From contig DASPKM010000004.1 of assembly GCA_035628135.1 (NCBI GenBank), forward strand, positions 362,596 through 426,595: a stretch of 64,000 bases of DNA. Direction: 5' to 3'. The translations under genes and the position numbers were made by a program. Shown here in pieces: positions 15,943 to 38,868 of the stretch. Origin of the DNA: Chitinophagaceae bacterium. GTDB lineage: Bacteria; Bacteroidota; Bacteroidia; Chitinophagales; Chitinophagaceae. The notes beneath the pieces are model-generated. The model worked only from the letters and a program-made list of their open reading frames with translations, was not told the DNA's origin and searched no databases. Position 1 is the first letter of the stretch. The number at the start of each line of letters is the position of its first letter.

Positions 15943-15980
15943 CTTTTTGATGGTTTTGTTCACTTTTTCACGCTTTCTGT
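15943..15980 (+). repeat. R0: repeat tail directly following the tRNA-Ser 3' end (TTTTTGATGGTTTTGTTCACTTTTTCACGCTTTCTGT)
   Basis: Together with the tRNA 3' end this is the prototype of the downstream direct repeats. Confidence 0.6.
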
Positions 15981-23950: not shown

Positions 23951-25141
23951 TTACACAAGCTGAAATTGCTTCTTACCAAAGGATTTCCCATTTATCTGAA
24001 TTTCTATTTCGTGCCGCCCGCGAAAAAGCTTCCGGGTAGTCATATGTTCGCGCAGCACATGTCGTTTTGTGAGCACAATACTTTCTCCTTTGGAAAGCGA
24101 TAGGTTCTTTAGCTTGAAGACCTTCTTGCTGTTGACTTTACCTGATTTATTTGGAAAGTACAGTATATAGTCGGCAATGATGTGCGCGTCTTCCTGCGCT
24201 TGTATTGTAAAAGAAAATTCCAATGTGTTATTCATCTTGACCTTTGCTGGTATCCTGAAGTTTAAGGCACGTATAGCTGCCTTACGCGAAACGCCCAACA
24301 GATCCATTGCTTTGGGGTTTCCATTTTTAATGAGTGTCCGCAAGCCATGGCGGACAATATAGTCCATTTCTTTCGGCGTTTGCTTTGCTGATCGTTTCCA
24401 TCGCATGAGCGTATCAATTGCCAAACCCGGGTCAATTTTTGAAATGTCGTTTATGTGATTTGCAACGGAACGGACAACGAACCTTGTTGAATCGAAAAAA
24501 AGATTGTCAAGTATCGGAATCGGAGCGGTTATAGGGATGTTTACTTTCTGCGACCACGGAAGCTTTGGACGCGTTCCTTCACTGCATAACCTACGGACAT
24601 GGTAATGCGCGTCTCTGCTCCATTTTAACAATGTCCTCAACGTTTCTTCGGGAAATGCGTTAATGAAATACCGGATAGCGTCCTCCGCCGAAAAACGCAT
24701 AGTCAGCTCGTAAAGTGCGTTAAGAGAAAGCGCCAGGTCATCTTGATTGCAGCCGTAGCGCGCAATATATTCCCCATACGGCGCATAGATGAAGTCACCG
24801 AAATCGTTGTCGGAGAGTTCAGGATTGTTTGGCGCGGGAAGCGATTGAAGTATCACATTCACTCCCTGCCCATAATCGCCGGGCAAGTATTGCTTCAAAC
24901 ATTGTGCAATCCAGTAAATCCTCGCCTTGAGTTCGAGTTCGGGAAATTTGGCGACAACTTCACGAATAAACCGGGTTTTTTGGAACGGAGGATATACGCG
25001 ATGTATTTCTCCTGCAATTTGCTCAACTTTTGCTGCATTGAACAGGAGATCTTTGAGTAAAACTTTCTCTGCCATGTAGTCAACTTTGTCTTTTGCAGGT
25101 TTGAACGCAGTGGTTACTCGGCATCTTTTAATTTTATCCAT
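23951..25141 (-). CDS. DNA alkylation repair protein (AlkC/AlkD HEAT-like repeat family) with C-terminal extra domain
   Basis: HEAT-like repeat signature of the DNA_alkylation family (WSRDAHYHVRRLCSEGTRPKLPW) plus a ~100-aa beta-rich C-terminal domain, as in AlkC. Confidence 0.65.
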   Translation of the reverse strand: MDKIKRCRVTTAFKPAKDKVDYMAEKVLLKDLLFNAAKVEQIAGEIHRVYPPFQKTRFIREVVAKFPELELKARIYWIAQCLKQYLPGDYGQGVNVILQSLPAPNNPELSDNDFGDFIYAPYGEYIARYGCNQDDLALSLNALYELTMRFSAEDAIRYFINAFPEETLRTLLKWSRDAHYHVRRLCSEGTRPKLPWSQKVNIPITAPIPILDNLFFDSTRFVVRSVANHINDISKIDPGLAIDTLMRWKRSAKQTPKEMDYIVRHGLRTLIKNGNPKAMDLLGVSRKAAIRALNFRIPAKVKMNNTLEFSFTIQAQEDAHIIADYILYFPNKSGKVNSKKVFKLKNLSLSKGESIVLTKRHVLREHMTTRKLFRGRHEIEIQINGKSFGKKQFQLV

Positions 25142-25581
25142 TCCTGGATGACAGATTCAAGAGCCTTCTTTTTGTTCTCAATATCCTTCATGTCTGTAAA
25201 TCTCGCTACCCGCCCGGTAGTGCCATCGCCTTCCAGTAAGCCTGATTTATTAGGCAGCGAAGCGCCGTAGTGGAACATAAGGCTAACGTGCTGTTTTGCA
25301 TTAAGGAAATAAGACGCGATGTTGCCTTTGTAAATAAATGTAGGTACACTCCATTTGATATCTTCGCTTATCTTATCGCTGCTGTTCATGATTATCTCCC
25401 GCACACGTTGTATTTCGGCATGCATGGGATGATTTTTCTTTTTTAGAAATTCATCCACTTTTGGATTGTTCCCGGGTTTTGCAGTGGAGACGGTAGCCTT
25501 TTTGGCTGCCTTTTTAGCCGGTGCAGCAGGTTTCCTGGTAGATTGCTTTTTAGAAGGCGTCGCTGCCTTTTTTGTGGCCAT
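25114..25581 (-). CDS. DUF1801 (YdhG-like) protein with Lys/Ala-rich histone-H1-like N-terminal tail
   Basis: Tail MATKKAATPSKKQSTRKPAAPAKKAAKKA followed by a DUF1801-like core (IASYFLNAKQHVSLMFHYG). Confidence 0.55.
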   Translation of the reverse strand: MATKKAATPSKKQSTRKPAAPAKKAAKKATVSTAKPGNNPKVDEFLKKKNHPMHAEIQRVREIIMNSSDKISEDIKWSVPTFIYKGNIASYFLNAKQHVSLMFHYGASLPNKSGLLEGDGTTGRVARFTDMKDIENKKKALESVIQEWIKLKDAE

Positions 25582-25779
25582 ATAAAATAATTGTGGGGTT
25601 AAATTTACTAAATACTGCTAACCCTGGTCTTGACCCAAGCAACTTTTGACAATTTGCTTTAAATGGTATCATTACGATGAACAATAAACCGGCTCTCTTT
25701 AAGAAAAATTTCTATTTCTTGCGACTTTCTGCACAACCCGCTGCTCTAATTAAAAAGCTTTAACCACAGACGACAAAGC

Positions 25780-26301
25780 ATGAACAGAAGCCCGGAAGAA
25801 TTTATCGACCTTTTAAAGCCAGTGTACAATAATGCGCTGCAATACTGTCTTGCCCTTACTAAAAATGGAACGGAAGCGAAAGACTTGTTGCAGGAATCAC
25901 TGCTAAAGGGCATCCAGGGTTTTAGATCGCTCCGGGAAGAAGCTAAGTTCAAATCATGGCTCTTTAAGATCATCACCCGTGAATTCTATGCCCTGTCGCG
26001 GAAATCTGTTAGCAGGAAGCATCTCCTAAACGGGCTTAAGGCTGAAACTACGGAGTTCCCAAATGTGTTCAGCAATGAAATATCAGACCTCAAACAAAAA
26101 GCGCTGCTGCACGCCATGAAACTACTAAACGAAAAGGAAAGAGCAGCCATTCTATTGTTCGAAGTGGGCGGATTTTCATTGGAAGAAGTACGACAAATAC
26201 AGGGCGAGCATTCCCTATCAGCCATAAAATCCAGGCTCAGCAGAACGAGGAGCAAGTTAAAGGAACTCATCCTGAGCCTGCAAAATGAAAAACAATTATA
26301 A
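25780..26301 (+). CDS. RNA polymerase sigma-70 factor, ECF subfamily
   Basis: Region 2 (LLQESLLKGIQGF) and region 4 HTH (ERAAILLFEVGGFSLEEVRQI). Confidence 0.9.
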   Translation: MNRSPEEFIDLLKPVYNNALQYCLALTKNGTEAKDLLQESLLKGIQGFRSLREEAKFKSWLFKIITREFYALSRKSVSRKHLLNGLKAETTEFPNVFSNEISDLKQKALLHAMKLLNEKERAAILLFEVGGFSLEEVRQIQGEHSLSAIKSRLSRTRSKLKELILSLQNEKQL

Positions 26302-27502
26302 AAATGAGATTATGCCAGGCACACCACCCTTTCACGATTCGAATGACGAACTCAACTCGCATTGGAAATCCATAAAAGACGCTGACTTCAGCGCCTCATT
26401 TCCCGAAACGGCCCAATGGATCCGGGAAAATGCAAAAAGCGGGCGTTTTGGACGCAACAGAACGCGCAGCCGTATTAAATGGACCGTGGCTGCTTTTATT
26501 CCTTTGCTGTTTATCATTTCGTGCACCTATAAAGTTGACCGGTTGGAAAAGTTTGGCGACCTCATAAATTTCAGTTTGCACAAGGGTAACCATACATCCT
26601 TTCAACAATTGGCTTCGTTACAAAAACGATTTGGCTTTTCCAGCTACCAATTGTTTCAACCCGGCTTACCTCACCTGGCTTCCTTTATTTCGCTGGTGAG
26701 AAACGATGCCGGCGTTATTGAAAAAGAACTTTCTGCCGTGAGCGGTGTAAGCAGGTTAAAGGTATCGCGGATAAACTATTCTGTCAGGGAATCGTTGTTT
26801 TCCACTTTTGTACATACGAGGTTGAAAATGGGTGCTTCGCCCAAGCCCGAAAAGGAAGTAATAAAAAAAGCCGTGCAGAACGAATTAAAAACACAAGGCT
26901 TCGCACATGTGGATATAGATATTGCAATTGATGAAAAAGAACCCTTAGTGGTAAAGTATAATTTACCCGAAGACACGGAGTCTGATACGGCGGTAACGAT
27001 CATTTATGTACCTGACAGCGCCCCCCGGTTTGTCCCGCGCTCAAACACGATGTCGAGGCAGGCCAGGCAATTGAAAAATTTTGAATGGATATTAGGCACG
27101 TGGAAAGTGTTGCATAAAGACGTAGAAACCTGGCATCACTGGGTGGGCATGAGCGATACAGTCCTAAAATGCTACGTTCTCGAAAAACCGGGCAAACAGG
27201 TAAACCTGACAGTAGGCTTTTACCTCAAGAACAGCCATACGAATGAAATCGAGCTGCATTTGAAAAGTGAACAATGGACGTTTGTAACACGATCAAATAC
27301 GCCGTGGCAATTCAGCAACGACTCGGAGGGCCCACGCAGCGACGTGACCTGGGCACTAAAGGATAACAATACCTGGCAAATCATGTTCTCCGGCCAGGGG
27401 AATAAAGAGTTCATCAACTTATCGCGGCAGCCCAACCAGGAAATGGAAGACCTGGTACGATCGATGATCAAAAACCATCCTGACAAGGGCACAAAGTATT
27501 AA
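26285..27502 (+). CDS. putative anti-sigma factor (single-pass membrane protein)
   Basis: Overlaps the 3' end of the ECF sigma gene. Cytoplasmic N-terminus, one TM (WTVAAFIPLLFIISC) and a large extracytoplasmic domain. Confidence 0.5.
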   Translation: MKNNYKNEIMPGTPPFHDSNDELNSHWKSIKDADFSASFPETAQWIRENAKSGRFGRNRTRSRIKWTVAAFIPLLFIISCTYKVDRLEKFGDLINFSLHKGNHTSFQQLASLQKRFGFSSYQLFQPGLPHLASFISLVRNDAGVIEKELSAVSGVSRLKVSRINYSVRESLFSTFVHTRLKMGASPKPEKEVIKKAVQNELKTQGFAHVDIDIAIDEKEPLVVKYNLPEDTESDTAVTIIYVPDSAPRFVPRSNTMSRQARQLKNFEWILGTWKVLHKDVETWHHWVGMSDTVLKCYVLEKPGKQVNLTVGFYLKNSHTNEIELHLKSEQWTFVTRSNTPWQFSNDSEGPRSDVTWALKDNNTWQIMFSGQGNKEFINLSRQPNQEMEDLVRSMIKNHPDKGTKY

Positions 27503-27506
27503 ACAA

Positions 27507-27537
27507 AAGTTCCCGGCACATGCCGGAACTTTTTTAT
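27507..27537 (+). terminator. rho-independent terminator
   Basis: GTTCCCGGCA-CA-TGCCGGAAC hairpin plus T6, immediately after the stop at 27502. Confidence 0.65.
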
Positions 27538-27884
27538 CAAGTGGATTGCAATACCGGCACTTCATTGAATTCAATCAGGTTGTCTGCCAACGCTCCGGTA
27601 ATCGGCATGCCGGTGGGTCCTTCCATAAATAGCCATTGGCCTTCAAGTATTGATCTCGGGGAATGTATTCACCCTTGCTGTTGCGCCGCATGTCAATGGC
27701 GCCATATACCAGCTAAAGCTTTTTCATCAATAGCAATAGCTTGTTCAATGCTCTTTGGAAGTTCGTGCCGTTCAATAACCACCCGTTCGATATCCTGTTA
27801 GTGGTATTTTGAAAAGAAAAATCCCAAACTTCTTCACTTACGTGGAGAAGATCTGGGATTGTGATATACTGAAACCCTGCTTAC

Positions 27885-28625
27885 TTATTTTCCGTCGTCT
27901 GTCAAAGTTCCGTTCTGGATAAACCTGATCTGCACTTTTGTATCATCAGTTGCGCCGGGAACGCCAGACAGCAATATTGTGTACACCCTTCCCTGGGCAA
28001 CGTCTATCGTCCTGCTGGCATCGATGGCTGCGCCATTCTTTGCGGCAACGGTCAACTGGCCGGGAGCAACCGCTTTAAATTCACTAACACCTGCATAAGT
28101 TGCAGTTTCATTTACTACGGTATTGCCACCTGCGGAAATGGTAACGAGCGGTGTATTTACCGAATCGGTAATGGCATTTACATAACGTATGTATGCCTGG
28201 CCCGATGCAGCGGACAAGCTATCGATGTTATCCTGCACCACTACGTTGCGGTAGCTGTTGTTGGCTCCTACTACGAATACCGAATAGTACTTGTCGTCTT
28301 TAAATTCATAATCAACGCTGGCCAGCGGCTTGCTTGCAGGATAATCAAAACTTTGAACGGGCCTGTTGCCTATGTATATATTCTGATATCCCCCGGTATA
28401 ACTGGTGTAGCTCAGCGGCGTACGCGTGAGCAGGTTGCCTGAAAGCGTAACCACCACCGACCGCTGGTCGGGCGCCAGGTTAACGGCCATCAACCCCGCA
28501 GCGGGAACGTCAACATTGTTATCGTTGTTCTTGGTACATGCTGCAAACAATACTGCTGCCGCCACTATCGCTATACCGGCAAACAAATTCCGGCGGAAGC
28601 TCAAAGAGACCTTCTTCATATTCAT
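27885..28625 (-). CDS. DUF4397-like lipoprotein
   Basis: Lipobox (FAAC) and the repeated beta-rich pattern typical of DUF4397. Assigned by eye. Confidence 0.55.
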   Translation of the reverse strand: MNMKKVSLSFRRNLFAGIAIVAAAVLFAACTKNNDNNVDVPAAGLMAVNLAPDQRSVVVTLSGNLLTRTPLSYTSYTGGYQNIYIGNRPVQSFDYPASKPLASVDYEFKDDKYYSVFVVGANNSYRNVVVQDNIDSLSAASGQAYIRYVNAITDSVNTPLVTISAGGNTVVNETATYAGVSEFKAVAPGQLTVAAKNGAAIDASRTIDVAQGRVYTILLSGVPGATDDTKVQIRFIQNGTLTDDGK

Positions 28626-28878
28626 CTATATTTTTTTGATTTAAAAAAACTGGTTAAGCACGCAGGAAGAAATGGTTATGATATGCCCCGGTTGGATTTA
28701 GGAGGCACCAAAGTTATTTAAACAACCTTTGCTGTTTTTATAATGAAATGATAAAGCATCGTTAAGCAAACTCTAAAAAGCCATTCATGATTTCATGCGC
28801 ACCGGGGCGAATGGCCCGTATTTCAGGCGGGATATCACAATTCCTTTTTTTATTGTACGATTGGGCTTACTTTAAATC

Positions 28879-29862
28879 ATGATACAGCCGCTTGAAGCAA
28901 AACAGGACCTTGCAGTAAGCCTTTCCAATGGCGTGCGCTCCACCGCAGGCAAGGTGTGGGATGTACTGACGGCAAGCAGGGATGGGAACCTGCAGCGCGT
29001 ACAGCAATTGGTGAATGAATGCGCGGAGCTGGCCTATGCACAATACAATTATACGCCTCCCATTCATTTTGCAGTAAGAGAGGGACATGCAGAACTGGTG
29101 CAATACCTGCTTGGTCTCGGCGCACTGGACCCATCTTATATCACGTATCCTTTCAAGGAAACGCTTCTTACAGTTGCGCAGGACAGGGGCTATCGCGCTA
29201 TAGCAGGCATGTTGCAGCAATATCTCAGCGACCCCTCGCTCTGTAAATTCAAAGGTGATAATGGCGAGATACACTACAATCAAACGCCGGTACAACAAGC
29301 CTTTCAAAAAGCAGTAGACAAAGGCGACATCTGCACAACAGCGGCATTGCTACTCGATCATGCCGACCTGCTGCAAACCGATAATTATTTCTGGGGTGAA
29401 GGCATACTCATGATGCCGGCCAAAGACCCGAATCCTGAAATGGTGAAATTATTGCTTGACCATGGCGCCAAAGTTCCAGGCGTATCAAAATGGGGACGGT
29501 TTTATTATTTCAAGCACTACCCTATGGCTGTATTCCTGATGCAGCACGGCATGAATCCAAATCACATGAACTGGCATCATGTAACGTTATTGCACGATAT
29601 GGCACAGGAAGGCGACTTGCAAAAAGCCCGGCTACTGTTGCAGCATGGCGCTGATGTGGACCCGTTAGAAGAAGAATACTGTTCTACGCCACTCGGAATG
29701 GCGGCGAGGTGGGGACATGTTGAAATGGTTGAACTTTTATTGCAGCAAGGCGCGGACGTGCACACAGCGGGCGTTGACTGGGCTACACCGTTACAATGGG
29801 CAAAGCGAAAAGGACATGAACGCATCGAAGCGATGCTGCGTGAAGCCGGCGCCGAACATTGA
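28879..29862 (+). CDS. ankyrin-repeat protein
   Basis: Several ANK repeats (TPPIHFAVREGHAELVQYLLGLGA; TPLGMAARWGHVEMVELLLQQGADV). Confidence 0.85.
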   Translation: MIQPLEAKQDLAVSLSNGVRSTAGKVWDVLTASRDGNLQRVQQLVNECAELAYAQYNYTPPIHFAVREGHAELVQYLLGLGALDPSYITYPFKETLLTVAQDRGYRAIAGMLQQYLSDPSLCKFKGDNGEIHYNQTPVQQAFQKAVDKGDICTTAALLLDHADLLQTDNYFWGEGILMMPAKDPNPEMVKLLLDHGAKVPGVSKWGRFYYFKHYPMAVFLMQHGMNPNHMNWHHVTLLHDMAQEGDLQKARLLLQHGADVDPLEEEYCSTPLGMAARWGHVEMVELLLQQGADVHTAGVDWATPLQWAKRKGHERIEAMLREAGAEH

Positions 29863-30073
29863 TTGCAATCAAACGTCAACGCCGTAAAAAAACTTTTAGA
29901 AAAATTTGGAAACATCAAAAAAATATTTCCATCTTTGCATTCGCAAATCAACAACATGCATCGCAGACCTATAAATACAATGATTGACCGGTTTAGTTCC
30001 GAGAAGGGCTATACCAACGGTGGGGCATGTTATGCTACAGAATGAGTCATAAAAACTATTCCGATATAACAGA

Positions 30074-30103
30074 CCCCGCACAAAATTGCGGGGTTTTTAA
30101 TTT
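30074..30103 (+). terminator. rho-independent terminator
   Basis: CCCCGCACAAAATTGCGGGG hairpin followed by TTTTTAATTT. Confidence 0.6.
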
Positions 30104-30110
30104 GGAACAT

Positions 30111-30266
30111 ATGCTGAAACAGTCACTACATAAACGAATTAAACAATTGACGGAAAGATCGATAGCATCCGAACGGGAGTATTGTGCCAAAAGGAATAGC
30201 AACGGTAATCCTGTTGATACGGAGCGAGATATTATCCATATACGGCCGAGGTATATCCAGACATGA
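30111..30266 (+). CDS. possible small protein (51 aa) bracketed by two terminators
   Basis: ATG at 30111 directly after the terminator. The ORF ends 25 nt before a second terminator. No homolog recognised. Confidence 0.25.
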   Translation: MLKQSLHKRIKQLTERSIASEREYCAKRNSNGNPVDTERDIIHIRPRYIQT

Positions 30267-30290
30267 CCTGCGCACGCAGGTAAATGTGGC

Positions 30291-30325
30291 AAGAAGCCCG
30301 GTCGATATGCGGCCGGGCTTTTTGT
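30291..30325 (+). terminator. rho-independent terminator
   Basis: GCCCGG-TCGATATGCGG-CCGGGC hairpin plus T5, just upstream of the tRNA cluster. Confidence 0.6.
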
Positions 30326-30333
30326 TGCCTTTT

Positions 30334-30409
30334 GGCCTGTTCGTCTAATGGTACAGGATACCACACTTTCGATGTGGGGATACGGGTTCGATTCCCGTAC
30401 AGGCTACCA
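30334..30409 (+). tRNA. tRNA-Glu(TTC)
   Basis: Acceptor GGCCTGT/ACAGGCT, anticodon arm CCACA-CTTTCGA-TGTGG, T-arm ACGGG-TTCGATT-CCCGT, encoded CCA. Confidence 0.8.
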
Positions 30410-30481
30410 GGTTCGTTGGTGTAATGGCTAACATAGCAGATTGTCGATCTGTTGACACGGGTTCGAATCCCGTACGAACCG
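30410..30481 (+). tRNA. tRNA-Asp(GTC)
   Basis: Acceptor GGTTCGT/ACGAACC, anticodon arm GCAGA-TTGTCGA-TCTGT, T-arm ACGGG-TTCGAAT-CCCGT. Confidence 0.8.
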
Positions 30482-30486
30482 CGCAC

Positions 30487-30558
30487 TGGTTTATAGTTCA
30501 ATGGACAGAACACCGCGCTACGAACGCGGAGATGAAAGTTCGATTCTTTCTAAACCAA
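30487..30558 (+). tRNA. tRNA-Arg(ACG)
   Basis: Acceptor TGGTTTA/TAAACCA (U1-A72), anticodon arm CCGCG-CTACGAA-CGCGG, T-arm GAAAG-TTCGATT-CTTTC. Confidence 0.7.
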
Positions 30559-30592
30559 CACCGCCAGCATTTGAAGGGATTGATATTCAGCA

Positions 30593-30664
30593 GATGATTT
30601 AGCTCAATGGTAGAGCAGCACCCTGATACGGTGCAGGTTGATAGTTCGAATCTATCAGTCATCA
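30593..30664 (+). tRNA. tRNA-Ile(GAT)
   Basis: Acceptor GATGATT/AGTCATC, anticodon arm GCACC-CTGATAC-GGTGC, T-arm GATAG-TTCGAAT-CTATC. Confidence 0.7.
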
Positions 30665-30665
30665 C

Positions 30666-30741
30666 TGGCTCGTAGCTCAATTGGCAGAGCTCCAGGTTTT
30701 TACCCTGGAGGTTGTGAGTTCGATCCTCACCGGGCCAACCA
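30666..30741 (+). tRNA. tRNA-Lys(TTT)
   Basis: Acceptor TGGCTCG/CGGGCCA, anticodon arm CCAGG-TTTTTAC-CCTGG, T-arm GTGAG-TTCGATC-CTCAC, encoded CCA. Confidence 0.75.
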
Positions 30742-30742
30742 T

Positions 30743-30815
30743 GGATGAATAGCTCAACTGGCAGAGCAACGGCTTGTTAAGCCGGAGGTTGAAAGTTCGA
30801 TTCTTTCTTCATCCG
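30743..30815 (+). tRNA. tRNA-Asn(GTT)
   Basis: Acceptor GGATGAA/TTCATCC, anticodon loop TTGTTAA, T-arm GAAAG-TTCGATT-CTTTC. Confidence 0.8.
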
Positions 30816-30949
30816 CCGTAGCATGACATTGACAATGTCATCACAAGAGCTTCCTCTTTTAAGGAAGGAACATGCCGTTGCATTCAAACCAGGCCTGTGC
30901 TTCAAAAAAGCATGGCAGTGCAGGAGTAGTAACTCCCTGTATGCTGTTG

Positions 30950-31140
30950 CTGCAGCGGATGTGTCAGCAACACTGCGTGTCGGGGGTTCGATTCCCCTTC
31001 ACATCACCATTTAACGGGTGTGATAGCTCAGTGGTTAGAGCAGCAGACAAATCGCGGGTTCGAATCCCGCACGGACTGTGAATCCGTTAGCTCAGGCGGT
31101 AGAGCACTACGCTCATAACGTAGAGGAAAAAGGGAGTCCA
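30950..31140 (+). pseudogene. tRNA-derived fragments / tRNA-like structured RNA (three incomplete cloverleaf modules)
   Basis: (i) 30958..31009: an acceptor plus T-arm minihelix ending in ACCA. (ii) 31016..31079: G(-1)-type acceptor and D-arm followed directly by a T-arm, with no anticodon arm, then a His-like anticodon hairpin ACGGA-CTGTGAA-TCCGT. (iii) 31081..31126: D-arm plus CAU anticodon arm (CTACG-CTCATAA-CGTAG) with no T-arm. No complete cloverleaf can be drawn. Confidence 0.35.
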
Positions 31141-31445
31141 CCACTCCTGTAACAAAGGTGACCATTATAAAAAGCCGGGTTGTTTGCCCGCGGTACTACC
31201 GCAGTCCGGTAAACACCTGCATGCAGGCTTCTCGGCAGTATGGCTTGCATTACTTCACAGGAGCAGCAATTGCCGATGAAGCCGGTGATCCCACATACAG
31301 GGGTAACCGGCAGAAGTCAAGGACGCTCCGATGAACTGATGCGAAAAAATACTGGCACTGCCTGCTTCCGTGGATACGGGATGGTGAACAATGCGGCTTT
31401 TTAATTTTTAAAACTTATAACAACCAATAACAACAGGAGGTAAAC

Positions 31446-32555
31446 ATGAAACGCGTATTGATCAACGCCTACCAGGTAGGCCTGGTATTCAGGCGCGGAA
31501 TGTACAAGCGCATGCTGAAGGAAGGCAAATACTGGTTATGGGCTTCCGATACCGTGTACGTGTACGACGTAACCAAGCCTTTTTATGCACCCGTTGAACT
31601 GAACATCCTGTTGCAGGATGCAGAGCTGGCCGATGCATTGCAGGTGATCGAAGTAAAAGACAACGAGATCGCGCTGCAATACGAAAATGGTTTGCTGAAA
31701 CAGGTACTGAACCCCGGACGGTACACTTTCTGGAAAAGTGTAATCCGCTATGATTTCATTCGCGCCGACATCAGCAAGATCGAGATCACTGAAAACATCG
31801 ACCGGTCTGTATTAATGAACAAACTGGTAGCTCCATACGTACGCTCTGTAACTGTAGAGAGCTACGAGAAAGCAGTTTTGTTCGTGGACGGCAAATATGT
31901 AAAGGTGCTGGAAAGCGGTGTGTACTACTGGTGGAAGAACAACATTGCCATCAACGTGGGCCGGGTAGATGGGCGGCAACAGCAATTAGAGATCAATGGA
32001 CAGGAAATCCTGACCAAAGACAAAGCTGCATTGCGCATCAATGCCTGGGCACAGTACAAGGTAACCGATATTGAAAAAGCGGTATTGGCCAACAAGGAAT
32101 ACGACAAGCAATTGTACGTAAACTTCCAGGTTGCATTGCGTGCTTACATCGGTACTTACACCCTGGATGAGTTGCTGGAGAAAAAAGAGACCATTGCTCC
32201 CGTGGTATTGCAAAACGTGCAGGAAAGCGCGGAAGCATTGGGCGTGGCAGTATATGGATTCGGTATCCGCGACATCATCCTGCCAGGTGACGTGAAGGAG
32301 ATCATGAACCAGGTGTTGATTGCCGAGAAAAAAGCTCAGGCAAACATCATCATGCGCCGTGAGGAAACTGCCAGCACACGCAGCCTGCTGAACACCGCCA
32401 AGCTGATGGAGGACAACGCAATGCTGTTCAAGTTGAAAGAAATGGAATACGTGGAGAAGATCGCAGACAAGATCAACAGCATCAGCGTAAGTGGCAACGG
32501 CATGCTGATCGAACAGTTGAAGCAGATCTTTGTGAAAAGTTCCGCACCCGGTTGA
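31446..32555 (+). CDS. SPFH/band-7 (slipin/flotillin-like) domain protein without an obvious TM anchor
   Basis: SPFH core and the coiled-coil tail VLIAEKKAQANIIMRREETA. Preceded by an AGGAGG SD-like motif. Confidence 0.75.
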   Translation: MKRVLINAYQVGLVFRRGMYKRMLKEGKYWLWASDTVYVYDVTKPFYAPVELNILLQDAELADALQVIEVKDNEIALQYENGLLKQVLNPGRYTFWKSVIRYDFIRADISKIEITENIDRSVLMNKLVAPYVRSVTVESYEKAVLFVDGKYVKVLESGVYYWWKNNIAINVGRVDGRQQQLEINGQEILTKDKAALRINAWAQYKVTDIEKAVLANKEYDKQLYVNFQVALRAYIGTYTLDELLEKKETIAPVVLQNVQESAEALGVAVYGFGIRDIILPGDVKEIMNQVLIAEKKAQANIIMRREETASTRSLLNTAKLMEDNAMLFKLKEMEYVEKIADKINSISVSGNGMLIEQLKQIFVKSSAPG

Positions 32556-32624
32556 TAGCTGACATCCGGTACTGTAATGGTGCCGGATGTTTTTATATCT
32601 TCATGTGCCTTGTAAACAACTACC

Positions 32625-33119
32625 ATGAAGGCCAAAACATTTACATTTTCGGGAACGGTCCACAACATCGAAAGCAATATGCCGGGCATACTTAACCCGA
32701 ATGTGTTGGTTCCTGAAGACATTGTGGACAGCCTGCACGCATTGGCAGGAAAAGAAAAGGGACCTGTGCAGGTGAAATGCGGGTTAAAGAAAAAATGGTA
32801 CAAGGCCAATATAGTAAAATACAAGGGCGCGTGGCGATTATACCTTCATGGGATCATGCGCAATGAAACCGGCATCGAAGTAGGCGATACCGTTCGTGTT
32901 ACATTGGTATACGATCCTGAAGCGCGCATGCCGCCAATGCCAAAGGCTTTTAAAGACGCGCTTGCCGCCAATAAACCGGCCAAAAAAATATGGCTGATGC
33001 AATCCAAATCGCGCAGAAAAGAGGTGCTCAATTATCTTAATTCCCTGAAGACGCAGGAATCAGTAGCGCGCAATGTGCAGAAGCTGATTGTGCAATTCCT
33101 GGAGAAACGAAAGCAATAA
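32625..33119 (+). CDS. DUF1905 plus YdeI/OmpD-associated family protein
   Basis: N-terminal DUF1905-like beta domain and C-terminal YdeI-like helical region (KEVLNYLNSLKTQESVARNVQKLI). Confidence 0.65.
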   Translation: MKAKTFTFSGTVHNIESNMPGILNPNVLVPEDIVDSLHALAGKEKGPVQVKCGLKKKWYKANIVKYKGAWRLYLHGIMRNETGIEVGDTVRVTLVYDPEARMPPMPKAFKDALAANKPAKKIWLMQSKSRRKEVLNYLNSLKTQESVARNVQKLIVQFLEKRKQ

Positions 33120-33215
33120 AAGCTCCATGATGAAGCGGCTGTTTGGACCAGCGGCATAAATTCTGCATATCACAGCTTACCGGCGAGGCTTGAAGCATTA
33201 AATGCTTTTTTATGA

Positions 33216-35486
33216 TTGTATATTGGAAAATGTATGGGACTTAAAGTGCACAGGGTGATATCGAGGCGCTTGCCTGAGCCGGGCTTAATGCCCGAGGACA
33301 CGCCGGAACTGCATGCGCTTGCACAGTATGTAAGGGCTGGCCGGTGCATTTTGTTCGTAGGCGCGGGACTGCCTTCAGGAGCGGGCCTTCCAACCTGGGT
33401 GGAATTGATGGAAAGGCTGGTGAAAAAGATCACCTGCTACGGTATTAATGAAGGCGTGGTACCCAATTATATCTCCCTCCCTGTTAGTGAAGAAGATGCC
33501 TGGAAAGACCCTGTGGTGGTTGCTGTACAAAAGGAACTAGGTAAAAAAACATTCGATCAATTGCTCAAGCAGATCCGTCGCACCACTGCCCTTACCTCGG
33601 AACCAGAGATCATCTTACTCGCATTGGAAATTGTGGGCCGCACTTCCATAGAACGCGCAGAGTTGATGCGGCTGCTGCAACAAAAGCGCTTTCCGGAGCT
33701 GGCCGAGTTTTGCCGCAACAGGTTGGGTAATGAACGGTTCAACCAGGAAATACGCAAGGCCCTGGTACCAAAATCCGGGTTGCCCGCGGCATTCCGCCAT
33801 ATTGTGCGCACGCCATTCGCGTGCATTGTAACCACTAATTTCGATACGTTGATCGAGCGAGCCTACGAACAATTCGGGCAAACGGGTATTCCACGCGCAC
33901 CCACGGGCGTTGAGCTTACACAGCTTGGCACGCTGCTGATAGATGATTCGTTTTTTGTATTGAAAGCGCATGGCGACGCGCTGCGTCCTGAAACGATGAT
34001 ATTTTCAGCGAACGATTACCGCCGCCTCATTCATGCCACGCCCGCATTCCAGGCATTCTTCAACAGCATGCTAATGACGCATGCATTGCTGTTTGTAGGT
34101 TATTCATTGAACGATGCCAACTTTCGCCTGTTATTGGACCAGCAGTTTACGATGTTCAACGGGCAGGTGCCGCCGCGCTATGCATTGCTAAGCGGTGTTG
34201 GCGCCGCGGAAGAAGATATTCTGTGGCAAACCGCCCGGCTACAGGTGCTCTCCTATCCCGATGGAAAGCACGAGCACGTAGAAAGATTTTTAGGAAGGCT
34301 TGCAAGGGTCACGAAACAACCAGGCGCCATCATTCCTTCGAAACCGGCGACGCCTTCGCCCAAAACAGGCATCATCAATACAGACGAAGCATCTACACTG
34401 TTCAACACCAGCATCCGCGATGGAAGGTTGTTGGTTGAACTCGTACGGCCTGCCAATTCTAAAACGCAGCCCACCACATGGGCCATGCAGGTAAGCCAAA
34501 AGGATTTTGAGGACTTTAAGTCATCGATCAAAGACGTGGTAAAAGCACACACGCAATATCACTCGGCCATGCCCGAAATAAATGCCATCAAAGAACATTT
34601 TTTGAAATTGTTTCCTGCGGAGCTGTTTCGAAAGCTGGCGGCATTGAAACCGGGCTCGCCCATTCGTTTTGTTTGCAGGCATGGAACGCACCGCATACCC
34701 TGGGAATGGTTGCCGGCGGCCAAAACACCGCTATGCCTGAGACATTCGGTTTCACGATGCCCCATCACATTAAGCGATACGGCGCGGGGCTACCGCATAC
34801 TCAACAAAAGGGTTCGCGCACTTATCATTGGCGACGCGGGCAGCGGCCAGCCGCCCCAACTCTGGCCCCTGGACGAGGCAGAACGCGAAGCGACAGAAAT
34901 AGTAAAGCGGCTGCGGAATAAATTATCTCCTAAAGGGGTTACGCATTTGTCGAGGAAAACCGCCACCAGGAACCGCATCCTGCGCGAATTGCGGGAAGGA
35001 GATTATGATATCATCCATTTTGCAGGACATGCATGGTTCACCAACCGTGAATCTTATCTATGGGCCTGGGACAATGTAATGCTGGGTTCTGAGCTAACGC
35101 CCATGCTTAGCCGCAGGCCTCCGTCGTTGCTGGTAATGAGCACGCATTTCACCAGCTTCGTGCCGCTGGGGATTAATGAAGACCTGATGGCGAAGCTGGC
35201 CGGCAAAACCACAGCGCTGCACGAAATAGAAGCTCAGCATTCGCTCGACTTTGCCGAAAACGCCATGCGTTGCGGCGTAGCTACTTTCGTGGGCTCATTC
35301 GGCGAGCCTCCGGAAAAGGACACGGCCGACACCATGATCGCTTTTTATGAAGGGTTGCTGGCAGGCGATTCCGTGGCCGGCTCGCTGCTGAAAGCAAGGA
35401 AGCGCCGTGTCCAGAAAGGATTCACGAGCAGCCTCCTTGTAACAGCCACAGGTTATGGCGATCTGCGGCTGGTGAATAAAAAATGA
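33216..35486 (+). CDS. SIR2-like (SIR2_2) NADase-type domain fused to a CHAT-like caspase-fold domain; candidate antiphage defence protein
   Basis: N-terminal SIR2_2 motifs: ILFVGAGLPSGAGLPTW, IVTTNFDTLIE, VLKAHGD, LLFVGYSLND. C-terminal CHAT-like motifs: ALIIGDAGSG, DIIHFAGHAWF, LLVMSTHF (His in place of the catalytic Cys), and the tail VATFVGSFG...MIAFYEGLLAGDSVAGSLLKARKR. Confidence 0.75.
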   Translation: MYIGKCMGLKVHRVISRRLPEPGLMPEDTPELHALAQYVRAGRCILFVGAGLPSGAGLPTWVELMERLVKKITCYGINEGVVPNYISLPVSEEDAWKDPVVVAVQKELGKKTFDQLLKQIRRTTALTSEPEIILLALEIVGRTSIERAELMRLLQQKRFPELAEFCRNRLGNERFNQEIRKALVPKSGLPAAFRHIVRTPFACIVTTNFDTLIERAYEQFGQTGIPRAPTGVELTQLGTLLIDDSFFVLKAHGDALRPETMIFSANDYRRLIHATPAFQAFFNSMLMTHALLFVGYSLNDANFRLLLDQQFTMFNGQVPPRYALLSGVGAAEEDILWQTARLQVLSYPDGKHEHVERFLGRLARVTKQPGAIIPSKPATPSPKTGIINTDEASTLFNTSIRDGRLLVELVRPANSKTQPTTWAMQVSQKDFEDFKSSIKDVVKAHTQYHSAMPEINAIKEHFLKLFPAELFRKLAALKPGSPIRFVCRHGTHRIPWEWLPAAKTPLCLRHSVSRCPITLSDTARGYRILNKRVRALIIGDAGSGQPPQLWPLDEAEREATEIVKRLRNKLSPKGVTHLSRKTATRNRILRELREGDYDIIHFAGHAWFTNRESYLWAWDNVMLGSELTPMLSRRPPSLLVMSTHFTSFVPLGINEDLMAKLAGKTTALHEIEAQHSLDFAENAMRCGVATFVGSFGEPPEKDTADTMIAFYEGLLAGDSVAGSLLKARKRRVQKGFTSSLLVTATGYGDLRLVNKK

Positions 35487-35490
35487 CTTG

Positions 35491-38130
35491 CTATAATTTC
35501 ACCATTTTCACACGCTCCTTCATTCCCGTTGTGCTGGCTTCCACGAAATACATGCCCGCAGTTGCCTGGGCAAATCTTCTGTTGAAACTATTCTGTATAA
35601 TGGCCGGGGTCCCACGCACAGAGAACAACTCCGTGCCATCCACGCTGAACAATTTCAAGGTAACAATGGCGGTATGGTTCACATTGTTGAACTCCAGTTT
35701 CACCTGGCTCCTCGAAGGATTGGGATAGGCCTGGAAGGTCATCCTGGTCTCGTAGGGTTCTTCCACGTTTACAAATACATCGCTGCCACGTGTCCTTAAA
35801 TTACCCGGCGATGTGCGGGTGTTGACTGAAGTTGGCGCGGTATAAGTAACGTTCACCCATACTTTTTGCCCGAGATCTGCAGTAGTGGAATTCTTTATTT
35901 TGATAGTGTACCAGCCGGTAGACGCAGCAACATAACTGCCTGTTAAGGGTGAACTGCTGGAAGACGTGCCGGTAACATTCGATACGTTGGTGCCGCTGGT
36001 ATTGTACAATGCGATATTCTGAGTGCGTCCATTTACTTCAGGATATAGTTTGTAGGTAATGGTCTTGCCCGCATCGGCATAAATTCTTCCAACGGTACGT
36101 TGCGCGGTAGAATTGTTCGGTAATCTTCCCCCCTGTTGCAATGATTGTGCATGACTATCGCCCAGGTCGTCCGCCATTTCCCACTCCTGCACGGTAGTGG
36201 TGCTGCGGCCTGGCGAATAGGTAGCGAGATAGTTATACATATCCGCAACGGTGGTAAACGTTACGCCCGCAGGTTTCGGCGCCCAGATGGAATATCCATG
36301 GCCCCTTGCACCCGCAATGGTATGACCTACGGGAGCAGTCTTGATAAGTACCCTGCCATCGTTGTACACGTGCGTGGGCGTTACGCCATGCGCGCCGGAA
36401 TAATCGTAGAGGTCGGTGTTATTCCAGGACGGATCTCCCACGCTCACCCAAACTTCTTCATCCTGGGAGTTGTTGGAAGCAGTATTGAATTTATCGGTAA
36501 TGCCGATGATGGCCTTGCCCTTTCTTTCCAGCACCAGGTGATCGCCGCTTCCTCCTTTCTGGTAATAAGGCGCCTGTCCGCCGGTAAGCGATGTGGGAAC
36601 GGCATAATCACCATTCTTGAATTGCAGCTTCTGATGCGCGAGAATGATGTTCACGATGTCCTCGCGTACGGGCAGATCGGTAGTGCTGGTCGGTAAATGC
36701 GAATAGCGTTTACCGGTAGTGCCGATGTCGAAGAGGTCTTCGAAAAAAACAGTGGGATTGCCGTCCATGGCAAATACAATGGCATAAGCTGCATACAGCC
36801 TCGGCTCCCGCGGATCGATGTGCTGGCCATTGCCACCCAATTCTTCCCCGGTATTCCAGCCGGTTGCATCGCCCAATGGTTTCAGGAAATTACCACTGGC
36901 GTCTACCTTGGGCCGGTAAGTATCGTGACTATTTACAAAAGGACAGGTGCGATGCACGCGTTGCGTAGCATAGTTGTAATATCTTTTGTTCTGCTGCTCG
37001 CCCGGGAGATTTTGCATATTATAGCTGCCAGTGCTCAGCACCATGCTGTACAAGCCTCCGTTGGGACCGTATCCCCTAAGGCTGAAATCGAAAGTGCCGG
37101 TATGCTCTTCGGTGCCGCTGCGCACATTGGTTACATAGTTATCGAGGTCTGTTTTGTTGCCGATCCATTCCCCGATGCATAGCATGGCCTCGCCACCCTG
37201 GGCAAATGATGGCAATGTATATTTCGTATTGTAAATAAGGTCTTCCTGCACATAAATAGGAAAATGCTTTACTGCATCCCAGCGCCAGCCGTCCACACCG
37301 GTTTGCTTTTTGAACCACATGATCCAATCACGCGAATGGTTGCGCATGTGATTGGAGCTTTGCGCGGGATTTACATAAGCGCGGGTAACACTGCCGATGG
37401 TCGCCGAACCCGATGTAGGTATATTGGAGCTTTGCCCGTAGGCCGAGCTCTCAAAAGAAATATCCGGGCCGAAATGCGGCGTGCATATATCACCGGTAGT
37501 ACAGTTGTTGTTGAGGTTGGGATAAAAATTGGGATAGTTCTTGGGCCACCGGCCGTTGCGCGTCCAGTAATCATTTTGCGAATCATCAATGAAGGGCGTG
37601 CTGTACGACACGTACCGGAAGTTTTTATATCCATTGGCATTGACCATTGAATAACTGGTCTCCGGGTCCTGTCCACCGGTGCCCGTGTTACTGCCCGCTC
37701 CGTCCACGTGGTTCAACACGATGTCCTGTATGGCCTCGATGCCATTGGCGTGCAGCACCGCGATCATGCGCAGCAATTCATCTTTATTGCCCATACGCGT
37801 ACGGACAGTCAGCGAATCGGCCCCGCCCTTCTGGTATTTATCACCCAGGTCGTAATGATCGAAAGGACTGTAGCCTACAGAGCCTGTAAAGCTGTTCTTA
37901 TAAGAGGGCGGGATCCAAACGGCGTCGATGCCCATGGCCTTCAGGCGCGGCGTCAATTCGGTCAGGTAGTTCGACCAGCGGTTGGGAAAATTGTCATTCC
38001 TGAAATTCCACCAGAATCCCTGGAGCACTACTTTTTTTACGCGGGTGGATTGTGAGTAGAGGTTAGTGATGGAAAGGCTGCACAGCAGCAAGAGGAGCCA
38101 AAGGGCCCTCAGACGAAGTCTTACGGTCAT
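35491..38130 (-). CDS. secreted GH13 alpha-amylase family glycosidase with T9SS C-terminal sorting domain
   Basis: GH13 conserved regions I (DIVLNHV), II (GWRWDAVKH) and IV (FVNSHD). Signal peptide. C-terminal roughly 80-aa Por/T9SS sorting domain (TLKLFSVDGTELFSVRG...). Confidence 0.9.
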   Translation of the reverse strand: MTVRLRLRALWLLLLLCSLSITNLYSQSTRVKKVVLQGFWWNFRNDNFPNRWSNYLTELTPRLKAMGIDAVWIPPSYKNSFTGSVGYSPFDHYDLGDKYQKGGADSLTVRTRMGNKDELLRMIAVLHANGIEAIQDIVLNHVDGAGSNTGTGGQDPETSYSMVNANGYKNFRYVSYSTPFIDDSQNDYWTRNGRWPKNYPNFYPNLNNNCTTGDICTPHFGPDISFESSAYGQSSNIPTSGSATIGSVTRAYVNPAQSSNHMRNHSRDWIMWFKKQTGVDGWRWDAVKHFPIYVQEDLIYNTKYTLPSFAQGGEAMLCIGEWIGNKTDLDNYVTNVRSGTEEHTGTFDFSLRGYGPNGGLYSMVLSTGSYNMQNLPGEQQNKRYYNYATQRVHRTCPFVNSHDTYRPKVDASGNFLKPLGDATGWNTGEELGGNGQHIDPREPRLYAAYAIVFAMDGNPTVFFEDLFDIGTTGKRYSHLPTSTTDLPVREDIVNIILAHQKLQFKNGDYAVPTSLTGGQAPYYQKGGSGDHLVLERKGKAIIGITDKFNTASNNSQDEEVWVSVGDPSWNNTDLYDYSGAHGVTPTHVYNDGRVLIKTAPVGHTIAGARGHGYSIWAPKPAGVTFTTVADMYNYLATYSPGRSTTTVQEWEMADDLGDSHAQSLQQGGRLPNNSTAQRTVGRIYADAGKTITYKLYPEVNGRTQNIALYNTSGTNVSNVTGTSSSSSPLTGSYVAASTGWYTIKIKNSTTADLGQKVWVNVTYTAPTSVNTRTSPGNLRTRGSDVFVNVEEPYETRMTFQAYPNPSRSQVKLEFNNVNHTAIVTLKLFSVDGTELFSVRGTPAIIQNSFNRRFAQATAGMYFVEASTTGMKERVKMVKL

Positions 38131-38304
38131 ACGACAAGGCAGTTTAATGGTTAAGAATTATGCGAATCGTTCGAATGTGTATAAAATACACATTGTACCT
38201 AAATGTAAGACTTTTTTAGAAACTGCCAATAAAAAAGCGCCGGGTTCCCAGGAAGTGAACCGGCGCTTTAGGCCAATATTTTGGGGGATGCAGGGAATAA
38301 TTTG

Positions 38305-38775
38305 TTATGATCGTTTCCGGGCGTTTTTCATATTCAGCTCATACGTGGCAATCCATTCCTTAGGAGTGATCTTGCTGGCCAGCTCCCCTACCAGCTTATA
38401 AGGAATATCATCCATTTTCTTAAAACGTATACAGCTTTTGCCCATGTCCAACTTGGTTTTGCACTGCTTCGCGTATTCCTTCGTAAACCAGTCGTGCAGT
38501 TTTTTATCAGCATACACTCCCATGTGGTATAAGGCAATAAAATTTTTCTGCGAAGCAAGCCCCATAAATGGCAATGGCTGGCTGGGGTCGCAGTGGTAAC
38601 CTTCGGGATACATGGAATGTGGCACGGCCCAGCCCATCATTCCATAACCCATGGATTCTGAAAAGCCTTTAGGCAGGTTTTTCTTAATCACCTTCCTGAG
38701 TTCACTCATGGCGGCCTTCCGGTCTGGGGGCAAGCTCTCGATATACTCGTCGGGGGTAGCAGCTTTGGATTGCAT
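38305..38775 (-). CDS. DUF1801 (YdhG-like) domain protein
   Basis: Family signature recognised by eye (GYGMMGWAVPHSMYPEGYH...FIALYHMG). Confidence 0.65.
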   Translation of the reverse strand: MQSKAATPDEYIESLPPDRKAAMSELRKVIKKNLPKGFSESMGYGMMGWAVPHSMYPEGYHCDPSQPLPFMGLASQKNFIALYHMGVYADKKLHDWFTKEYAKQCKTKLDMGKSCIRFKKMDDIPYKLVGELASKITPKEWIATYELNMKNARKRS

Positions 38776-38868
38776 ACAACTTTATAGTTTGTGGTGGTTG
38801 TTTAGCCTCTAAGTTAATGCGTAACTTTCAACCATAACACAACCACACCTACAAATCATAAACTATAC

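Follow-up and report, generated by a model that had tools for sequence, protein, structure and literature searches.

Results

A structured RNA lies between a tRNA array and a slipin gene

We analysed a 64,000-nucleotide stretch of the genome of a Chitinophagaceae bacterium (contig DASPKM010000004.1 of assembly GCA_035628135.1, positions 362,596 to 426,595), referred to here as the window, and in it the segment that separates a tRNA array from a Band-7/SPFH gene. The array contains six tRNA genes on the forward strand (Glu, Asp, Arg, Ile, Lys and Asn; 30334..30817) that are called by ARAGORN and score 61–72 bits with Rfam, and the Band-7/SPFH gene (31446..32555, forward strand) codes for a protein of 369 aa with a Pfam Band_7 match (E = 6.6e-36) that NCBI names 'slipin family protein'. 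The interval between them, 30823–31401 on the forward strand, encodes a single noncoding RNA, large and structured and about 580 nt long, which is conserved throughout the family Chitinophagaceae and represents a class that Rfam 15 does not contain. A preliminary description made from the letters of the window had recorded here a palindrome, several short hairpins and a set of T-arms, D-arms and stem-loops, all of which are present in the sequence at the positions given, and had offered two explanations, debris of tRNA genes or a composite tRNA-like structured RNA. Our results support the latter, for an RNA that reaches far beyond the coordinates first assigned to it.

Relatives of the locus were fetched by means of the downstream slipin gene (31446–32555), a search that listed close relatives only, and the spread of the RNA is thus traced within Chitinophagaceae and their close relatives. 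The 80 loci obtained from species-representative genomes are all from this group, with slipin identities of 68–82%, and in nearly all of them, from 70 or more genomes, the region 5′ of slipin matches that of the window at about 70% identity (blastn). In 75 Chitinophagaceae genomes the orthologous slipin gene is preceded by a homolog of the RNA, 455–693 nt long (median, 577 nt). A MAFFT alignment of 76 sequences including the window (alignment A1) shows column conservation spanning approximately 30845–31400. When metagenome contigs were scanned with a motif taken from the 5′ block of the RNA alone, 119 further loci were recovered, and a slipin gene starts 330–700 nt past the motif on the same strand in every one of the 73 contigs with enough downstream sequence. 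At least 165 independent sequences from Chitinophagaceae keep the arrangement, with an identity of about 70%; comparison with relatives, which the preliminary description had recommended, therefore reveals a locus that is present and conserved and not variable debris. The particular arrangement in the window is also found in two other assemblies (L001 and L002), from which we conclude that it is real.

Among the paired columns of the alignment, G-U cells (606) exceed A-C cells (137), indicating that the RNA is read from the forward strand. Pairwise insertions and deletions are mostly not multiples of three (1405, vs 381 that are), in agreement with the earlier statement that the region has no coding potential. 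The single-sequence minimum free energy (MFE) fold of the region has a z-score of only −1.55, and one hairpin of the window MFE fold (30945–72) was rejected, as it is not conserved and is paired in 47% of cases among relatives. Two pattern scans of 2.9 million viral contigs gave no match to the conserved RNA block, and a phage origin was rejected on this ground.

The centre of the RNA contains two permuted tRNA-like modules

Two tRNA-shaped modules in tandem form the centre of the RNA. Their elements follow the circularly permuted order of the bacterial Y RNA YrlA, in which a T-arm is followed by an acceptor-like stem closed by a loop, then by U8-A9, and then by a D-arm. Module 1 (30973..31046, forward strand, as are all features of the RNA described below) has the YrlA topology by both covariation and conserved tertiary nucleotides. 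A 4-bp closing stem (CUGC 30973–76 / GCAG 31043–46) stands in place of the anticodon stem and encloses, in order, a variable-loop-like GUGUC, the T-arm GGGGG-TTCGATT-CCCCT (30982–98), a closed acceptor hairpin (UCACAUC 30999–31005 / GGUGUGA 31017–23, with the loop ACCAUUUAACG), and a D-arm GCTC..GAGC (31026–41) with U8 and A9 before it and A26 after it. Module 2 (31049..31123) begins with a variable-loop-like AAAUC and the T-arm GCGGG-TTCGAAT-CCCGC (31054–70), which are followed by the closed acceptor hairpin ACGGA-CUGUGAA-UCCGU (31071–87, with 31071–75 paired to 31083–87) and a D-arm GCTC..GAGC (31090–105), again with U8 and A9 before and A26 after. It differs from module 1 in carrying an anticodon-like arm, CUACG-CUCAUAA-CGUAG (31107–23), and amounts to a tRNA that is circularly permuted at the 43/44 junction.

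These assignments revise the tRNA-like units as they were first drawn. An acceptor stem GATGTGT/TCACATC had been proposed for the first unit, and this is paired in 39% of cases among relatives, equal to background; the permuted pairing of the same TCACATC with the downstream GGTGTGA, which had been pointed out as the better match, is 91% paired. The hairpin ACGGA-CTGTGAA-TCCGT, taken for a His-type anticodon arm, is the closed acceptor-like stem of module 2, and its loop is not conserved. The statement that no full cloverleaf can be folded is borne out, in that ARAGORN reports the six upstream tRNAs and neither a tRNA nor a transfer-messenger RNA (tmRNA) within 30818–31445, and the Rfam search returns one marginal, chimeric match, described below.

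Using only the sequence of the window, and reasoning from tRNA and YrlA, we fixed the tRNA-like helices in advance and then counted them on alignment A1. Paired cells amount to 94.9%, compared with 72.1% in shuffles and 36–46% with slid partners, and 34 of the 39 pairs change on both sides (627 cells); none of 500 shuffles reaches any of the observed measures. Taken helix by helix, covariation is seen in 4/4, 3/5, 7/7 and 3/4 pairs of module 1, with 89–99% of cells paired, and in 3/5, 5/5, 4/4 and 5/5 pairs of module 2. A local replicate with 90 distinct metagenome sequences gave a similar result, with 93.9% paired vs 43% for slid partners and compensatory changes in 38 of 46 pairs. Competing pairings are all at background (27–53% paired), and a tRNA in standard order that uses the downstream hairpin HP3 as its T-arm was rejected, its pairing being likewise at background.

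Conservation also extends to the nucleotides that form the tRNA tertiary structure. In both modules, conservation reaches at least 90% at each of U8, A14, G18, G19, A21, U54, U55, C56, A58, U60 and A26. The Levitt 15–48 pair covaries, being GC in 52 and AU in 8 instances of module 1, and AU in 20 and GC in 16 instances of module 2. Selection acts on the tRNA elbow of both modules. Module 1 is without an anticodon arm, and neither module has a conserved anticodon or a free acceptor end: the loop of the module 2 arm keeps the pattern C32 U33 NNN R37 A38 with 26 different triplets in the 76 sequences, CAU being present in only three of them and GUG not being conserved either, and the acceptor-like stems of relatives are 4–8 bp long and closed by loops of mostly 2–7 nt. 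Judged from these sequence features, a closed acceptor and no conserved anticodon, the modules cannot be charged.

The window itself shows a peculiarity in module 1, which is the only one of 76 to have a 7-bp acceptor stem followed by ACCA (30999–31023). A YrlA with a 7-bp acceptor stem was shown to be cut by RNase P and to have CCA added (PMC4201824). By analogy with the YrlA of M. smegmatis, RNase P could cut module 1 of the window between 31016 and 31017, and such a cut would split the RNA in two and leave a CCA-like end at 31009.

Relatives differ in their number of modules. Canonical T-arms number two in 132 of 163 RNAs, one in 27 and three in 4, and we conclude that the modules evolve by duplication and loss. 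One locus (L056, approximately 3040–3130) has three modules in T-arm, acceptor stem, D-arm (T-AS-D) order, with module 1 duplicated, another (L047) has an insertion between the modules (A1 columns 343–370), and several Chitinophaga species have a single module. A regular-expression count of T-AS-D modules outside the RNA was discarded, since most of its hits were tandem tRNA genes counted in error.

The modules are embedded in 5′ and 3′ domains

The 5′ end of the RNA is marked by P0 (30823..30841), a hairpin read from the sequence as the perfect 19-nt palindrome ATGACATTG-A-CAATGTCAT. By itself the palindrome could be a chance occurrence, since the 64-kb window contains four perfect inverted repeats of at least 9 bp where 1.85 are expected. 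Relatives have a hairpin of at least 6 bp and of differing sequence 3–6 nt ahead of P1 in 52 of 75 cases, compared with 19% of shuffles.

The 5′ domain (30850..30967) was delimited by column conservation, and each of its helices is 87–98% paired with compensatory changes in A1. It begins with P1 (CTTCC/GGAAG; 30850–54/30863–67), and the long-range helix P2 (30868–73/30959–65) closes the domain around P3 (30885–87/30947–49), P4 (30893–95/30914–16 plus 30897–901/30909–13, the latter part, TGCTT/AAGCA, being P4b) and P5 (30918–24/30936–42), which has a GUAGUAAC loop. The domain includes a near-invariant block, AGUGCAG..GUAGUAAC..CUGUAUGCUGUU. The short hairpins noted earlier beyond the palindrome (CTTCC/GGAAG, TGCTT/AAGCA and CAGGAG/CTCCCTG, the last within 30921–30939) are the conserved helices P1, P4 and P5, and in this respect the original observation holds; the palindrome beside them corresponds to P0 and carries by itself no weight beyond chance.

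Downstream of module 2, the hairpin HP3 (GGGAG 31132–36 / CUCCU 31144–48; whole element 31132..31160) is 94% paired, and its loop sequence CACC (31139–42) is complementary to GGUG at 31157–60. This second pairing is 80% paired in A1, with compensatory changes in four of four pairs, and 88% paired in the metagenome replicate. The two strands change jointly (CACC/GGUG, CGCC/GGCG, CAGC/GCUG, CAUC/GAUG and UGCC/GGCA), and the HP3 region therefore forms an H-type pseudoknot.

The 3′ domain (31168..31401) has a variable apical part and is closed by P6, an 8-bp long-range helix (AAAAGCCG/CGGCUUUU; 31170–77/31394–401) in which all eight pairs show compensatory changes. Inside P6 are P7 (31184–88/31383–87), P8 (31214–16/31370–72) and P9 (31222–24/31364–66), which are 84–95% paired in A1, and UUCCGU at 31366–71 is invariant, including C31368 and C31369. 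Overall, the helices outside the tRNA-like modules together with the pseudoknot are 90.9% paired vs 34–46% for slid partners, and 50 of 59 pairs change on both sides, although we note that these helices were derived from the same alignment, so that the pairing test leans towards them.

Matches to known RNA families are partial

The Rfam tRNA model (RF00005) matches 31017–78 with 33.5 bits, just above its gathering score of 29. The match fuses D-arm 1 with T-arm 2, contains no anticodon arm and leaves the acceptor unpaired, and the acceptor pairing that it implies is 53% conserved, the level of background. A second match of the same model (31086–31154; 23.9 bits) is below threshold. The chimeric match at 31017–78 is an annotation trap, as pipelines could call a tRNA or a tRNA pseudogene on the strength of it.

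The YrlA model (RF02553) matches 30955–31070 with 34.5 bits (E = 1e-5), compared with a gathering score of 69. In 17 of 20 loci each RNA contains between one and three matches, of 27–44 bits, to positions ~23–88 of this model (the T-AS-D core with the inner closing stem), and in most relatives the match stops there and does not reach the outer, Ro-binding stem. In the window the match is longer (model positions 4–108) and places the outer stem on one strand of T-arm 2, with background pairing of 49%.

Apart from the tRNA model, no Rfam family reached threshold on the RNA of the window or in 11 relatives, and a search of 20 further relatives at E up to 0.1 returned only tRNA and sub-threshold YrlA matches. 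The models of the large RNAs GOLLD, ROOL and OLE gave no match on 30780–31460 at E up to 10, nor in the 20 relatives at E up to 0.1. The Rfam models tmRNA and tmRNA_permuted match T-loop fragments only, with 10–11 bits. Elsewhere in the window, a match of 65.2 bits to 'Plastid-psbl-rps4 3'UTR' (15890–15942, reverse strand; gathering score 68) lies antisense to a tRNA-Ser gene (15855–15943) and is artefactual, the model itself including an antisense tRNA; T-arms give small matches of the same sort.

The RNA–slipin pair and its genomic context

The tRNA array abuts P0, and array and RNA are probably part of the same transcription unit. In relatives the genes usually share one strand and follow the order tRNA array, RNaseH-like and AAA genes (either may come first), the RNA, slipin and, in most instances, RtcB. 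Same-strand arrays, with a median of 8 and up to 16 tRNAs, lie no more than 5.6 kb upstream in 69 of the 89 relatives with enough upstream sequence (78%), and among these 89 loci a PF04308 RNaseH-like (YkuK-type) gene is present upstream in 70 (79%) and an AAA ATPase gene in 56 (63%). Among the 98 loci whose downstream sequence is long enough, 75 have RtcB further downstream on the same strand, and in 21 of those 75 it is located within 270 nt of the slipin stop codon. The 64-kb window has no RtcB (tblastn), and neither the RNaseH-like nor the AAA gene was found anywhere in it; its locus has lost these neighbours and retains an intact RNA–slipin pair. What looks like a deletion is apparent between the array and the RNA, with a junction at approximately 30818–30822, and L001 and L002 agree in this.

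An A/U-rich spacer (31402..31445, forward strand) separates the RNA from the slipin start codon. In the 76 sequences the distance from P6 to slipin has a median of 37.5 nt (range 24–292) and the spacer is 46% A, and in half of the species it is too short for a separate promoter. P6 was considered as an intrinsic terminator and rejected, since most species have no U-run after it. P6 thus ends some 25–45 nt ahead of the slipin start codon, and from a spacer that is short, A-rich and usually without a U-run, we judge a promoter of its own or a canonical terminator to be unlikely here and infer that the RNA and slipin are co-transcribed. The Bacteroidetes −7 box (TAnnTTTG) was found upstream of the RNA in none of 75 sequences. 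A different sequence, AAGTTCTTTAAAATATT, is positioned just upstream of P0 (approximately 30–45 nt before P1) in about 40% of relatives (for example L003 5330–5350 and L009 5335–5352) and the window lacks it; its role could be that of a promoter element, a site of processing or a binding site for protein.

No TROVE (Ro60) domain was detected in the larger open reading frames (ORFs) of 23951–40224, approximately 5–9 kb around the element, where smaller ORFs were not scanned, nor in the other large ORFs of the window, nor within 10 kb in three other contigs (L202–L205). We also saw no RtcR-type regulator beside the loci examined.

The slipin protein has no predicted transmembrane helix (maximum Kyte-Doolittle score, 1.2). 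It matches PDB entries of cage-forming SPFH proteins, namely stomatin, QmcA, HflK/C, prohibitin and erlin. Ahead of its SPFH 'shoulder' and C-terminal helix it has an additional beta-rich domain of about 135 aa at the N terminus. Foldseek also aligns its structure model with major vault protein over more than 400 columns, in poor alignments and from a low-confidence model, and this match may be taken as only a hint. Slipin is presumed to be either the protein partner of the RNA or the gene that the RNA regulates.

Several features of the surroundings are of separate interest. In the window, slipin is followed 3′ by a YdeI-like gene and then by a gene (33216–35486, forward strand) for a 756-aa protein that joins a ThsA/Thoeris-like SIR2 domain (PADLOC E = 8e-25) to a CHAT protease domain. 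This SIR2-CHAT gene sits where most relatives have RtcB and may be a defence insertion or a partial replacement of the repair locus; PADLOC gave no defence-system match for the slipin, AAA, RNaseH-like and RtcB proteins. The arrays of many relatives include tRNA-Ile(UAU), which is unusual for bacteria (L015 2962–3035, L027 3052–3125, L065 5052–5125), and several arrays contain weak or partial tRNA matches, so the arrays may be accessory and not housekeeping. GC-rich palindromic repeats (CCTCCCCTTTGGGGAGG) occur at varied sites around the RNA, in the spacers downstream of it and upstream of P0, in L006–L008, L016 and L021 and look like mobile elements of the repetitive extragenic palindrome (REP) kind. 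Farther away in the window are an amylase-like protein with a type IX secretion system (T9SS) sorting signal (35491–38130) and a giant ORF of 6135 aa (45569–63976, reverse strand).

Discussion

The known RNA that the modules resemble most is YrlA, whose hallmarks are a Ro-binding stem, a tRNA-like domain of T-AS-D order and a TROVE gene within 4 kb (Chen et al. 2014, PMC4201824). Both share the succession of T-arm, closed acceptor stem and D-arm, with an enclosing stem that replaces the anticodon stem, and in both the tRNA tertiary nucleotides are conserved and the Levitt 15–48 pair covaries. Both are found in or beside RtcB repair operons, and YrlA is the best non-tRNA match in Rfam, through its core only. 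The RNA described here differs in lacking the Ro60-binding stem (the GNCGAA motif was not systematically searched), in having slipin as its neighbour and no TROVE gene nearby among the ORFs scanned, and in scoring below the family threshold. It also has one to three, mostly two, tandem modules, the second with an anticodon-like arm, and these sit within an RNA of about 580 nt that also has a pseudoknot and additional 5′ and 3′ domains.

A second comparison rests on genomic context. A preprint by Wang et al. (2018) states that in some bacteria RtcB is located beside a Band-7 gene and a predicted RNA, b7a-tRNA ('band 7-associated tRNA'), with a strong resemblance to a real tRNA, and that YrlA occasionally lies beside Band-7, and it describes these as predictions of Burroughs and Aravind from 2016 that were never validated (bioRxiv 10.1101/312249). 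An SPFH gene is also part of the rtc locus of P. aeruginosa (PMC13086221). The b7a-tRNA and our RNA have in common that a noncoding tRNA-like RNA lies beside Band-7/SPFH and RtcB, a context that is found here with slipin in 148 of 148 and with RtcB in 75 of 98 related loci, though not in the window, and the b7a-tRNA was proposed as a counterpart of the pair formed by the Ro scaffold and its Y RNA cofactor. There is no Rfam family of b7a-tRNA for a comparison at the level of sequence, and the likeness is one of genomic context. The abstract of the 2016 article by Burroughs and Aravind in NAR reportedly presents Rot/TROVE and SPFH/Band-7 proteins as scaffolding cofactors with cognate RNAs. The combination of Band-7, a tRNA-like RNA and RtcB was thus predicted in 2016, and the present architecture appears to be undescribed.

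On balance we favour, if only by a little, the interpretation that the RNA is a repair-associated tRNA mimic, acting as the RNA partner or the leader of the slipin gene, which in relatives belongs to an RtcB repair locus. Judging by context, it would be the Chitinophagaceae version of the tRNA-like RNA that accompanies Band-7 in RtcB-type repair loci. How it might work can be proposed by analogy, and we regard the following scheme as about evenly balanced between right and wrong. The RNA would be transcribed together with the upstream array and the downstream slipin gene, and with RtcB where present, and this transcript would fold into a stable scaffold that associates with oligomeric slipin, much as Y RNA does with Ro60 or OLE RNA with OapA. 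The complex would then present the two L-shaped, non-aminoacylatable mimics to tRNA-binding repair or processing factors, RtcB above all, which they may recruit or gate during the repair of damaged tRNAs, a role like the one proposed for Ro and Y RNA in rsr-rtcB operons.

Several observations weigh against this interpretation. The functional steps are drawn from analogy and gene neighbourhood, and binding of RNA is not known for SPFH proteins. The slipin structure model is of low confidence (pLDDT, the predicted local distance difference test, 64), no role is assigned to the large 5′ and 3′ domains, and RtcB is missing from the window. The b7a-tRNA is said to be like an authentic tRNA, whereas the modules here are permuted, closed and doubled and may be a different variant. 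Finally, a cis-acting leader would account just as well for the strict position immediately 5′ of the slipin start codon.

Such a leader, or damage sensor, would be the 5′ untranslated region (UTR) of the slipin(-RtcB) mRNA, in which binding of a tRNA-binding protein to the mimics, or their cleavage by tRNA-targeting nucleases at the anticodon-like loop, alters stability, read-through or translation of the downstream repair genes; it would replace the sensing of tRNA fragments that RtcR-type regulators provide in enterobacteria. Its position and orientation directly 5′ of slipin are invariant (148/148), in half of the species the short A-rich spacer leaves no room for a promoter, P6 is not followed by a canonical terminator, RtcB comes after slipin in most relatives, the loop keeps C32 U33 NNN R37 A38, and no RtcR-type regulator was seen beside the loci examined, all of which are consistent with this role. 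At about 580 nt, however, with some 20 helices and a pseudoknot, the RNA is far above the size of known leaders, P6 as a 220-nt long-range helix is a poor fit to co-transcriptional switching, and a 5′-terminal hairpin and a closed 3′ helix are typical of stable RNAs. The presence of 26 different 'anticodons' further speaks against a specific nuclease or synthetase ligand, and YrlA, too, is encoded in an rtc operon although it functions as an RNA of its own. We consider this cis-acting role, the main rival, unlikely, if well short of negligible. Size and complexity also bring to mind self-assembling multimers of the GOLLD/ROOL type (RF01998, RF03087), which are 550–800 nt in length, have many helices, multistem junctions and pseudoknots, and occur near tRNA islands, in phages or prophages, with linkers in GOLLD that sometimes hold tRNAs (PMC12286853, PMC5737381). 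The modules would then be a variable linker or cargo-like decoration and the linkage to slipin secondary, and both the variation from one to three modules between conserved 5′ and 3′ domains and the tRNA array upstream in 78% of loci would agree with this. We think it quite improbable in view of the absence of any sequence or structure match to these families in the window or in 20 relatives and of the conserved block in 2.9 million viral contigs; the RNA is chromosomal, confined as far as traced to one family and strictly coupled to a protein gene, and this coupling and the frequent RtcB point to a protein-coupled role. OLE RNA offers a looser parallel (general knowledge and PMC12286853), as a lineage-restricted, operonic RNA of about 600 nt beside genes of its protein partners (OapA/B/C); its sequence and fold are unrelated, its partner is a membrane protein of another family, and it has no tRNA mimicry.

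The tRNA-like part of the RNA could also be explained by what it most resembles. If it were genuinely a Y RNA (YrlA), with a Ro60/Rsr protein as partner whose gene lies in another part of the genome, the shared T-AS-D topology, the Rfam match and the frequent linkage of YrlA loci to RtcB would follow. The matches of 27–44 bits remain below the gathering score of 69, however, the Ro-binding stem is unmatched in most RNAs and 49% paired where it is aligned, and the RNA is about five times the length of YrlA. Nearly all of the best matches of a YrlA search model lie within 4 kb of Ro60 (PMC4201824), whereas no TROVE gene was seen here in the larger ORFs within about 5–9 kb of the element or within 10 kb in three contigs, and we hold this identity to be very improbable. 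The preliminary description had suggested debris of tRNA-His and tRNA-Met genes disrupted by recombination, to which may be added permuted or split genes that mature to tRNA-His or tRNA-Met. In its favour, the His and Met genes of relatives are missing from the window array, the window's module 1 has its 7-bp acceptor stem and ACCA, and the Rfam tRNA model gives 33.5 bits at 31017–78. This explanation is refuted as far as debris is concerned by at least 165 conserved sequences, by compensatory changes in every helix, with a covarying structure conserved in more than 160 sequences, and by the retention of the tertiary nucleotides; moreover, relatives with intact tRNA-His and tRNA-Met genes in their arrays also carry the modules, and the GUG and CAU triplets are not conserved within 'anticodons' that are hypervariable. 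The Rfam alignment leaves the acceptor unpaired and is without an anticodon arm, and its pairing, at 53%, is not conserved among relatives. Permuted tmRNA and the permuted tRNA genes of Cyanidioschyzon likewise encode the T-arm and the 3′ acceptor strand before the 5′ strand, but they are processed to a free CCA end and aminoacylated, whereas here the acceptor stem is a short hairpin closed by a loop of mostly 2–7 nt and NCCA is found in the window only. We give almost no credence to either debris or permuted genes.

Returning to the repair-associated tRNA mimic, a more specific version would have slipin form a soluble, vault-like cage that packages or docks the RNA through both modules and, with RtcB, constitutes a bacterial compartment for tRNA repair. 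This builds on the lack of a transmembrane segment and on the domains of slipin, and is a long shot. If it were true, the slipin cage would be a prokaryotic counterpart of both the vault with its vault RNA and Ro with its Y RNA, and the first link between SPFH cages and RNA biology.

The tRNA-like cofactors of repair loci, the Y RNAs of Ro and the b7a-tRNA of Band-7, were predicted years ago. The RNA described here is an unusually informative case, since it is large, has very strong covariation, contains two complete tRNA shapes that are not chargeable, and has a fixed protein neighbour, with RtcB and a tRNA array nearby in most relatives. Several of its hosts (Chitinophaga, Niastella, Pinibacter and Paraflavitalea) are cultivable, and in them it would be possible to test directly whether SPFH/Band-7 proteins are RNA-binding scaffolds analogous to Ro60.

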